From the IMG/VR virus record IMGVR_UViG_2609460210_000005: a DNA stretch of 36,067 nucleotides. One strand, written 5' to 3'. Position numbers and translations under genes: made by a program. This DNA comes from a virus (Duplodnaviria; Heunggongvirae; Uroviricota; Caudoviricetes). Below, piece by piece: positions 4,246 to 4,386 of this stretch; position 1 is the first letter of the stretch; each line of letters starts with the position of its first letter. The notes beneath the pieces are model-generated. The model saw only the letters and a list, made by a program, of their open reading frames with translations, searched no databases and was not told the origin of the DNA.

Positions 4246-4386
4246 TTACTGCTTACACTGTAAGAACGCCGCAAACTCCGCTCCCCAGAAGCTCATCCGT
4301 ATTTCGCACAGCGAACCGTGCAGCATCCAGATGATGAGGATTGCCGTCACGCAGAACGTGATGGCCGTAAGCGATTTTTGCGACAT
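4246..4386 (-). CDS. Hok/Gef-family type I toxin-like small membrane protein (46 aa: MSQKSLTAITFCVTAILIIWMLHGSLCEIRMSFWGAEFAAFLQCKQ); not in the supplied ORF track
   Basis: Manual translation; AAGGAG Shine-Dalgarno 8 nt upstream of ATG; hydrophobic helix then SLCEIR-x8-AAF, the signature spacing of Hok; downstream hairpin ACGGGGGATTGCTCCCCCGT. Confidence 0.5.
   Translation of the reverse strand: MSQKSLTAITFCVTAILIIWMLHGSLCEIRMSFWGAEFAAFLQCKQ

Follow-up and report, generated by a model that had tools for sequence, protein, structure and literature searches.

The window analysed here, a stretch of 36,067 nt of Caudoviricetes DNA (IMG/VR record IMGVR_UViG_2609460210_000005), carries on its minus strand a 46-codon open reading frame located between an ogr/Delta zinc-finger gene and an orphan RES-domain gene, all three genes having the same orientation (Table 1). 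Translation of the frame yields the peptide MSQKSLTAITFCVTAILIIWMLHGSLCEIRMSFWGAEFAAFLQCKQ, and together with the Pfam assignment of the two neighbours it reproduces exactly the ORF that the first-pass annotation had proposed at this place. The ribosome-binding site and the GC-rich hairpin beyond the stop codon, both described in the same annotation, are also present: the former, AAGGAG, occupies positions 4400-4395, 8 nt upstream of the ATG, and the latter spans positions 4236-4215. Around the coding sequence, a set of promoter-like sites and RNA elements of the hok/sok type can be predicted on both strands.

Table 1. Coordinates of the genes and of the candidate and predicted elements at the hok locus of the window.
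Feature	Position	Strand	Details
RES-domain gene (orphan)	3003..3836	-	Pfam domain
Predicted full-length hok mRNA core	4173..4532	-	5' end GGGUGCC to just past fbi; from homology limits and fold
fbi (fold-back inhibition)	4181..4196	-	GGUCGAUAAGGCACCC, complementary to the mRNA 5' end
3' hairpin	4215..4236	-	GACGGGGGA-GCAA-UCCCCCGUC, GC-rich, just after the hok stop
hok-family toxin gene	4246..4386	-	ATG start at 4386, 46 codons plus stop
SD-sequestering hairpin	4387..4416	-	anti-SD UAGCGCCUCC with GGAG..GCGCUA
Candidate Sok promoter	4392..4420	+	-35 TTGCTC 4392-4397, 17-nt spacer, -10 TAACCT 4415-4420
Leader ORF (candidate mok substitute)	4403..4516	-	AUG 4516 or GUG 4486; 37 or 27 codons; UGA 4405-4403
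Predicted Sok-like RNA	4427..4484	+	about 55-65 nt; 5' end uncertain (4424-4435); from fold and sokC geometry
Sok-target hairpin on the mRNA	4447..4479	-	GGCCCCGG...CCGAGGCC; complement forms the antisense RNA stem-loop
ucb (upstream complementary box)	4474..4483	-	GAAAGGCCCC; partner tac (3'-shortened) or GAGGCC segment (full-length)
tac	4518..4532	-	mRNA 5' end GGGUGCCUUUCGGCU; pairs with fbi or ucb; from MFE folds
Candidate hok promoter	4539..4567	-	-35 TTGCCG 4567-4562, 17-nt spacer, -10 TAGATT 4544-4539
ogr/Delta zinc-finger gene	4577..4837	-	Pfam Ogr_Delta

The toxin gene and its place in the Hok family

The hydrophobic helix and the Hok/Gef signature SLCEIR-x8-AAF, both reported in the first-pass annotation, were found in the peptide. 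Its residues 6-23, LTAITFCVTAILIIWMLH, are hydrophobic and correspond to a predicted N-terminal helix, while the C-terminal part contains two cysteines and ends in QCKQ. The search with Hok family profiles, which the annotation had suggested as a check, returned a match to Pfam HOK_GEF (PF01848) with 29.9 bits against a gathering score of 22 (E 4.1e-7), covering residues 7-44 and profile positions 5-42 of 42; PHROG 251 ('MokW-like host killing') matched with an E value of 1.3e-22. The NCBIfam models gave 34 bits against a cut-off of 89 for the HokA equivalog NF007290 and 21.6 bits against 73 for the Hok subfamily NF007279, both far below the cut-offs; the peptide is therefore a member of the Hok family, but neither a HokA nor an R1-type Hok. 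According to a published survey, seven positions are shared by over 80% of a set of 1264 Hok peptides (M1, C16, T18, L30, C31, E32 and E41; bioRxiv 10.1101/2025.08.07.668861), and all of them are present here with the correct spacing (M1, C12, T14, L26, C27, E28 and E37, respectively).

In global alignments the peptide shares 24-33% identity with R1 Hok, HokB, HokC, HokD, HokE, PndA and HokW, 17% with SrnB and 43% with a neighbouring Hok cluster. The segment MSFWGAEF, which departs from the usual sequence between CEIR and AAF, had led to the suggestion that the gene might be divergent or decayed. It proved to be a subfamily trait: WGAEFAAFLQCKQ is conserved in cluster 72 of the survey cited above, with the surrounding signature (W/G/A)G(A/T)E(F/I)AAFLQCKQ. 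With the conserved Hok residues retained and an identical peptide not among the constructs named as non-toxic in the text of that preprint, the first half of the suggestion holds and the second does not; the peptide is divergent, not decayed, and belongs to a large, distinct Hok subfamily. Comparison of coding sequences points the same way. Close relatives differ from the window by at most 8 nt, all of them synonymous (dS 0.34, dN 0), and more distant ones show dN/dS ratios of about 0.2-0.5, a pattern indicating that the coding sequence is under purifying selection and is not a chance frame. By homology, its product would be an inner-membrane toxin.

The gene itself is already known, being annotated, catalogued and, according to a preprint, toxic on overexpression. 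The first-pass annotation called it unannotated, which is true only of the ORF track available to its reader, from whose length cut-off so small a gene had dropped out: RefSeq lists the identical ORF as WP_000078916.1, under the PGAP name 'Hok/Gef family protein' and flanked by ogr and a 'RES family NAD+ phosphorylase', and the Hok/Gef ORF is annotated in hundreds of E. coli genomes. The exact peptide, with no difference at the protein level from WP_000078916.1, is entry 72_1621 of cluster 72 in the Hok survey of Escalera-Maurer et al. (2026; bioRxiv 10.1101/2025.08.07.668861), where the cluster appears in Table S2 as one of high abundance and the entry was cloned as LRP137; the window coding sequence is one synonymous base apart from the cloned one. 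The text of this preprint gives 42 of the 45 tested Hok homologues as toxic and lists 19_179, 60_1482 and 69_1540 as the sole non-toxic constructs, 72_1621 not being among them there. The assays relied on overexpression from a foreign promoter, and the survey, whose catalogue comprises 32,532 loci, by its own account covered the coding sequence only, explicitly setting aside mok, Sok and mRNA structure.

The surrounding DNA is equally widespread. The 451 bases from 4150 to 4600 recur with 100% identity in no fewer than 19 E. coli chromosomes among the matches listed and with 99% identity or more in 66 records, and a related cassette is present in 1545 of 5426 complete E. coli genomes (about 28%). 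E. coli WAT (NZ_CP012380, 2550193-2550643) and Eco889 are examples of strains in which the cassette is identical. Loci labelled Planococcaceae, Vagococcus and Xanthomonas were considered probable contamination and were not counted as a wide host range. A phage of the genus Xuanwuvirus (Peduoviridae), P88_4B11, matches the first 12 kb of the window with 95.9% identity and carries the cassette with 99.8% identity, its ORF being named 'MokW-like host killing'. The name goes back to hokW-sokW of the Stx2 prophage Sp5/933W, likewise a prophage-borne hok/sok module; the identity with hokW that it suggests was ruled out, as only 13 of 46 residues coincide (28%) and HokW is a 51-aa peptide (MKQQKAM...) of the HokD group, placed in 60% cluster 35 versus 72 for the window peptide. 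Stx phages also carry a separate cluster-72 copy, whose DNA is about 81% identical to the window cassette.

Predicted hok mRNA and limits of the cassette

The predicted hok transcript starts at G4532 and has a leader of 146 nt that is homologous to hok leaders. The -10 element of its candidate promoter aligns with TATAAT of K-12 hokC, the start GGGUGC aligns with the hokC promoter region as well, and the TTG of the -35 and the TA..(A/T)T of the -10 are kept in relatives having unrelated upstream flanks. The site scores 8 of 12, below the threshold of the promoter scan, and a generic promoter and terminator scan of positions 4050-4700 returned no promoter at threshold. The Rfam model RF01794 aligned over its full length at 4532..4373 on the minus strand with 43.6 bits (E 3e-8), below its gathering score of 59; values for other loci were 42.1 bits for one cluster-72 relative (L003), 87 for an R1-like locus and 118 for K-12 hokC, and a pairwise alignment of the window leader with the hokC leader is convincing. 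Despite its name 'sok', this model describes the hok-sense RNA, because in K-12 it matches the strand that encodes hokC, between the mRNA start and the ATG of that gene, with sokC annotated on the opposite strand.

The 368-nt RNA beginning at 4532 has a minimum free energy (MFE) of -159.5 kcal/mol (z = -6.3 against shuffled sequences), and two alternative conformations can be predicted for it. In the full-length fold, nucleotides 1-15 pair with fbi (4196-4181). In the RNA shortened to the 3' hairpin (nt 1-321), the 5' end pairs with ucb (4483-4474) instead, and GAGGC at 4452-4448 pairs with GCCUC at 4412-4408; the tac/ucb alternative was also obtained in the RNAalifold consensus. These pairings were compared in an alignment of 49 distinct cluster-72 mRNAs. 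The tac/fbi helix was paired in 89% of cases, with four pairs changed on both sides, versus 37-51% for slid controls, and the tac/ucb helix in 93.7%, with five pairs changed on both sides. Over whole conformations, 89.0% (full-length) and 89.9% (shortened) of the cells were paired versus 33-59% in slid controls, with 25 and 12 pairs changed on both sides, respectively; as the structures were derived from the window and its relatives, these counts express compatibility rather than proof. One relative (L132) shows matching changes in ucb (GGUCCC), GAGACC and GCGUCUC together, and GGCACCC of fbi is conserved in nearly all relatives. Thus the fold-back elements that the first-pass annotation recommended looking for are represented here by a tac/fbi pairing.

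Two further hairpins are conserved in the same alignment. The SD-sequestering hairpin takes in the hok SD as well as the A of the ATG; its helices 7 and 8 were paired in 99% and 88% of cases, respectively, and the helix of the 3' hairpin (helix 9) in 98.9%, with five pairs changed on both sides. Going by the R1 model (PMC9841398), processing to the translatable mRNA would be expected to end at the 3' hairpin. Direct unmasking of the hok SD was considered and rejected: the MFE structure of the shortened mRNA hinted that GAGGC captures the anti-SD and thereby frees the SD, but the ensemble probabilities gave this no support. The probability of an unpaired hok SD was 0.02 in the full-length and 0.05 in the shortened RNA of the window, with means of 0.01 and 0.08 over the 49 sequences and a rise of more than 0.2 in only two of them; SD accessibility in an R1-like control behaved likewise on 3' shortening.

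Homology with the relatives (75-89% identity) begins at about 4544-4560 and ends at about 4173-4181, and the same ends recur in unrelated contexts, namely P2-like and Stx prophages, IncI1/IncF plasmids and chromosomal sites, which delimits a mobile unit of approximately 390 bp. Positions 4173-4567 of the window very probably constitute a type I toxin-antitoxin cassette of the hok/sok type, which forms a cargo module beside ogr at the end of a P88-like prophage (Xuanwuvirus, P2 family). On its upstream side, only 10 nt separate the ogr stop codon from the hok -35 element on the same strand, with no terminator between them, so that read-through from ogr into hok at induction is possible. On its downstream side, the window departs from most relatives 8 nt after fbi. 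In those relatives, the terminator CCCGCAGCGTAAAAACTGCGGGTTTT follows about 20 nt past the point of divergence; a motif search did not find it anywhere in the window, and a terminator scan of the minus strand from 4246 to 3011 detected no intrinsic terminator after fbi. The first terminator-like site downstream of hok on this strand lies where the RES ORF ends, at 3011-2996. The new 3' junction is not private to the window, since P88_4B11 and every genome with 100% identity have it as well. The full-length hok transcript of this allele may therefore be longer than that of most relatives and may include the RES gene, and with the terminator lost, both its 3' end and its trimming clock may differ.

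Candidate Sok RNA and the missing mok frame

The search for an antisense promoter, also recommended in the first-pass annotation, yielded the candidate TTGCTC-17-TAACCT on the plus strand, at a position homologous to the K-12 sokC region. Its match to the consensus is weak, and the promoter scan did not detect it. Among 49 relatives, the -10 TAACCT was present in 48, a -35 starting with TTG in 46 and the 17-nt spacer in 47, and as the hok SD and a stem make use of the same bases, their conservation alone is no proof of a promoter. An alternative promoter, TTTTCA-17-CACTTG (4400-4428), homologous to a site that fits the annotated sokC start, was ranked below it, because no relative has the final T in its -10, and its -35 shows no conservation. 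The RNA predicted downstream of the preferred site would consist of a single-stranded 5' tail of about 20 nt, a stem-loop GCCUCGG...CCGGGGC (4449-4479) and a following CUUUCC that is poor as a U-tract, with a folding energy of -22.9 kcal/mol. It would span about -41 to -98 from the hok ATG, compared with -49 to -107 for annotated sokC. Within the leader, the relatives vary most in the region of the 5' tail, as is expected of a specificity determinant. The sok gene of this cassette is accordingly a prediction from sequence.

According to the accounts of the R1 system consulted (PMC9841398, PMC4147584), translation of hok requires that mok be translated at least as far as the hok SD, and Sok acts by blocking mok. 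In the window, GAGGC at 4452-4448 corresponds in position to the mok Shine-Dalgarno sequence of R1 and hokC, and a CCG stands where the ATG of mokC (-57) aligns. No frame overlapping hok, hence no canonical mok, was found in the window, in agreement with the first-pass annotation, and the observation extends to the subfamily: an ATG-started frame beginning at -75 to -40 and overlapping hok occurs in none of the 49 cluster-72 sequences, and one started by TTG or GTG in 10 of them. As a control, a mok-type frame was recovered in 42 of 43 distinct prophage loci of the HokC/D/W type. These counts indicate that the missing mok is a trait of the whole cluster-72 subfamily and not damage to the window copy. 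No earlier description of this trait was found in the literature consulted, which covered the R1 system, hokW-sokW and the Hok survey.

A leader ORF of 37 or 27 codons could take over the function of mok. Both the Sok target and the anti-SD lie within it, and its stop codon precedes the hok SD by 2 nt, so that termination of a ribosome at this UGA should open the SD hairpin. Its GUG start has GAAGG at 4497-4493, six bases upstream. In the subfamily, a leader ORF of this kind might start at the GAAGGCC(A/G)GAUGUGG sequence, which is conserved and precedes the Sok hairpin, and would end near the anti-SD or read through it. No Pfam match was obtained for the leader ORF. The frame as it stands in the window is shared only with one relative (L024); in relatives of another type (L028) it continues to +131 and overlaps hok, and in the remaining ones it ends elsewhere or is absent. 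When the criterion is relaxed to any stop from -40 onwards, an upstream ORF is present in 45 of the 49 sequences and is preceded by an SD-like sequence in 37. With such patchy conservation, the 37-codon ORF was rejected as a conserved mok, and because frames and ends differ and the chance expectation is high, it is retained as a candidate only.

Proposed mechanism, possible roles and significance

A type I toxin of the Hok/Gef type is the preferred reading of this locus because of the profile matches, the match of the hok-leader RNA model on the same strand, the tac/fbi and tac/ucb pairings, and the literature. Transferred from R1, the mechanism would run as follows. The full-length hok mRNA would be locked by pairing of its 5' and 3' ends and would be neither translated nor bound by Sok; slow trimming from the 3' end to the hairpin at 4236-4215 would let the 5' end switch to ucb and the leader refold; the unstable Sok RNA would bind the trimmed mRNA and lead to its cleavage; and in cells that have lost Sok, Hok would be made, insert into the inner membrane and kill or lyse the cell. 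The least certain step is the coupling of Sok to hok, which could operate through the non-overlapping leader ORF or by RNA decay alone.

Comparison with characterized systems shows how much of this scheme is shared. Like R1 hok/mok/sok (parB), the window encodes a small membrane toxin behind a leader of about 150-170 nt starting with GG(G/C)(U/G)GC, with tac/fbi and tac/ucb alternatives, a GAGGC that has ucb and a downstream GCCUC box as alternative partners, a hok SD that is sequestered, an antisense RNA stem-loop directed against the leader (predicted in the window) and a 3' hairpin. It differs from R1 in the peptide (30% identity; 46 aa versus 52, with the end QCKQ instead of AYESGK), in the absence of a start codon after GAGG and thus of an overlapping mok, and, in the window allele, in the absence of a terminator after fbi. 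K-12 hokC/mokC/sokC (gef) aligns with the window in the promoter -10, the 5' end and the leader, and its Sok position is comparable, whereas its peptide is 26% identical and its RF01794 score (118 bits versus 44) much higher. What counts against the preferred reading are the sub-threshold RF01794 and NCBIfam scores, the absence of mok, the SD remaining closed in the ensemble folds after trimming, the lost terminator, and the fact that toxicity was seen on overexpression only.

Two other explanations were weighed. One holds that the frame is a chance opening in an intergenic spacer, coincidentally resembling Hok; the shortness of the ORF and NCBIfam Hok scores below the cut-offs are what it can draw on. 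Against it stand the Pfam match above the gathering score and the PHROG E value of 1e-22, the conservation of the ORF with synonymous-only change, the hok-type leader and fold-back architecture, and the toxicity given in the preprint, and this explanation, left with next to no probability, is considered refuted. The other grants an intact toxin gene and takes its surroundings for regulatory debris of the kind seen at K-12 hokA, hokC and hokE, the RES-cargo 3' flank and the stop in the leader having silenced a hok gene that is now carried passively. Its main argument is that homology to most relatives ends 8 nt past fbi, with the terminator missing; in addition, the leader frame that enters hok in the L028-type relatives is cut in the window by the UGA at 4405, and K-12 hokC offers a parallel in being flanked by IS186 just downstream. 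Yet the 451 nt, new junction included, are identical in at least 19 of the chromosomes listed and at least 99% identical in 66 records, every RNA element is intact, as are the two promoter-like sites, fbi itself is kept, and the coding sequence changes among close relatives by synonymous substitutions only, all of which makes silencing an unlikely account.

If the cassette is active, its role is likely to be stabilisation of the prophage (or of the cargo region), phage exclusion or assistance to lysis on induction, among which the sequence cannot choose. That its main job is to help lysis or to abort infection, with Hok released on induction or infection, and not post-segregational stabilisation, is possible if somewhat doubtful. 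hokW-sokW is reported to speed lysis and to double the release of Sp5 after mitomycin C (Takada et al., 2021, PMC8621323), and hok lies directly downstream, on the same strand, of the late-gene activator ogr, close enough for the read-through considered above. HokW, however, is a different paralogue with 28% identity, P2-type phages possess a holin and an endolysin of their own, and the sequence does not discriminate between the roles.

The toxin itself brings nothing biologically new, and the interest of the locus, which is modest, lies in its regulation. The textbook rule by which hok absolutely requires that an overlapping mok be translated does not fit a very common, prophage-borne subfamily. 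We tentatively suggest, as one possibility that falls short of being the probable one, that the cluster-72 cassettes may be a hok/sok variant working without a canonical mok, in which the GAGG box would serve only as an element of the RNA switch and Sok would act through a different leader ORF or through RNase-mediated decay alone; in the window allele, the missing terminator may also link the transcription of hok to that of the orphan RES-domain toxin gene downstream. If confirmed experimentally, this would mean that Sok-type RNAs have two ways of controlling Hok toxins.

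The hok leader: covariance model and start-codon motif

The Rfam model RF01794, although named 'sok antitoxin', models the hok-sense leader strand and not the Sok strand; at the K-12 hokC locus (L178, positions 302-454) it matches the strand opposite the annotated sokC. The leaders of cluster 72, the Hok subfamily that holds the window peptide, score about 42-44 bits with this model (window 4373-4532 included) against a gathering score of 59, and annotation pipelines therefore report no RNA there. Within these leaders, a conserved motif, GAAGGCC(A/G)GAUGUGG (window 4483-4497, minus strand; columns 36-50 of alignment A3), comprises a Shine-Dalgarno-like box and, 3' to it, an AUG and a GUG codon that overlap and lie in different frames. 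Single-nucleotide indels decide which of the two codons opens the leader ORF, and the resulting ORFs end at positions between -38 and +134, counted from the hok start codon.

Tandem, decayed and probably misplaced hok copies

Hok genes were also found arranged as tandem arrays, listed in the table together with features of the window. The cluster-72 copy on the Escherichia albertii plasmid pEA5_1 (L018, 554-676) is decayed: its second codon is an in-frame stop, and it has deletions as well. It is nevertheless annotated as a 33-aa 'hok/gef family protein'; in contrast to this truly degraded copy, the window hok is an intact gene. Cluster-72 hok was further detected on contigs labelled as a Planococcaceae MAG, Vagococcus sp. 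and Xanthomonas pisi (L004, L005 and L008), encoding peptides with 72-98% identity to the window Hok. Its presence in these three assemblies most likely reflects enterobacterial or phage contamination.

Coordinates of window features and of tandem hok genes in comparison loci
Feature	Location	Strand	Support or source
RES-domain protein gene, 277 aa	window 3003-3836	-	Pfam RES, 46.7 bits
C4 antisense RNA	window 31681-31769	-	Rfam, 75.1 bits, above gathering score
isrK Hfq-binding RNA	window 31806-31880	-	Rfam, 64.1 bits, above gathering score
Two hok cassettes ~470 bp apart, adjoining serS	L016 89-229 + 563-703		E. coli STEC1012
Two hok genes in tandem	L011 1501 + 2042		Erwinia aeris
Three hok genes in tandem	L012 545 + 1023 + 1501		Serratia inhibens

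Genomic surroundings of hok

The window sequence contains 19 lone, dispersed N bases (e.g., at 1202, 1225, 5033, 6653 and 8168), one of which lies inside the gpD-like ORF 4880..6121 and yields an X in its translation. The Rfam matches to C4 and isrK suggest that this P2-like prophage carries a P1/P7-type C4 immunity RNA region. Downstream of hok, the RES-domain gene lies on the same strand, its product has no PHROG match, and no Xre/DUF2384-type antitoxin gene adjoins it, all upstream ORFs being shorter than 31 aa. No terminator-like site was found on the minus strand in the spacer between the two genes (3837-4245), the earliest such site past hok being located at 3011-2996. The RES-domain gene may be co-transcribed with hok. 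In L023, L025, L029 and about 45 further IMG/VR loci, the predicted prophage contigs (33-38 kb) stop exactly 3 nt past the hok stop codon, so that hok is commonly the final called gene of P88-like prophage predictions and the RES cargo region is variable.
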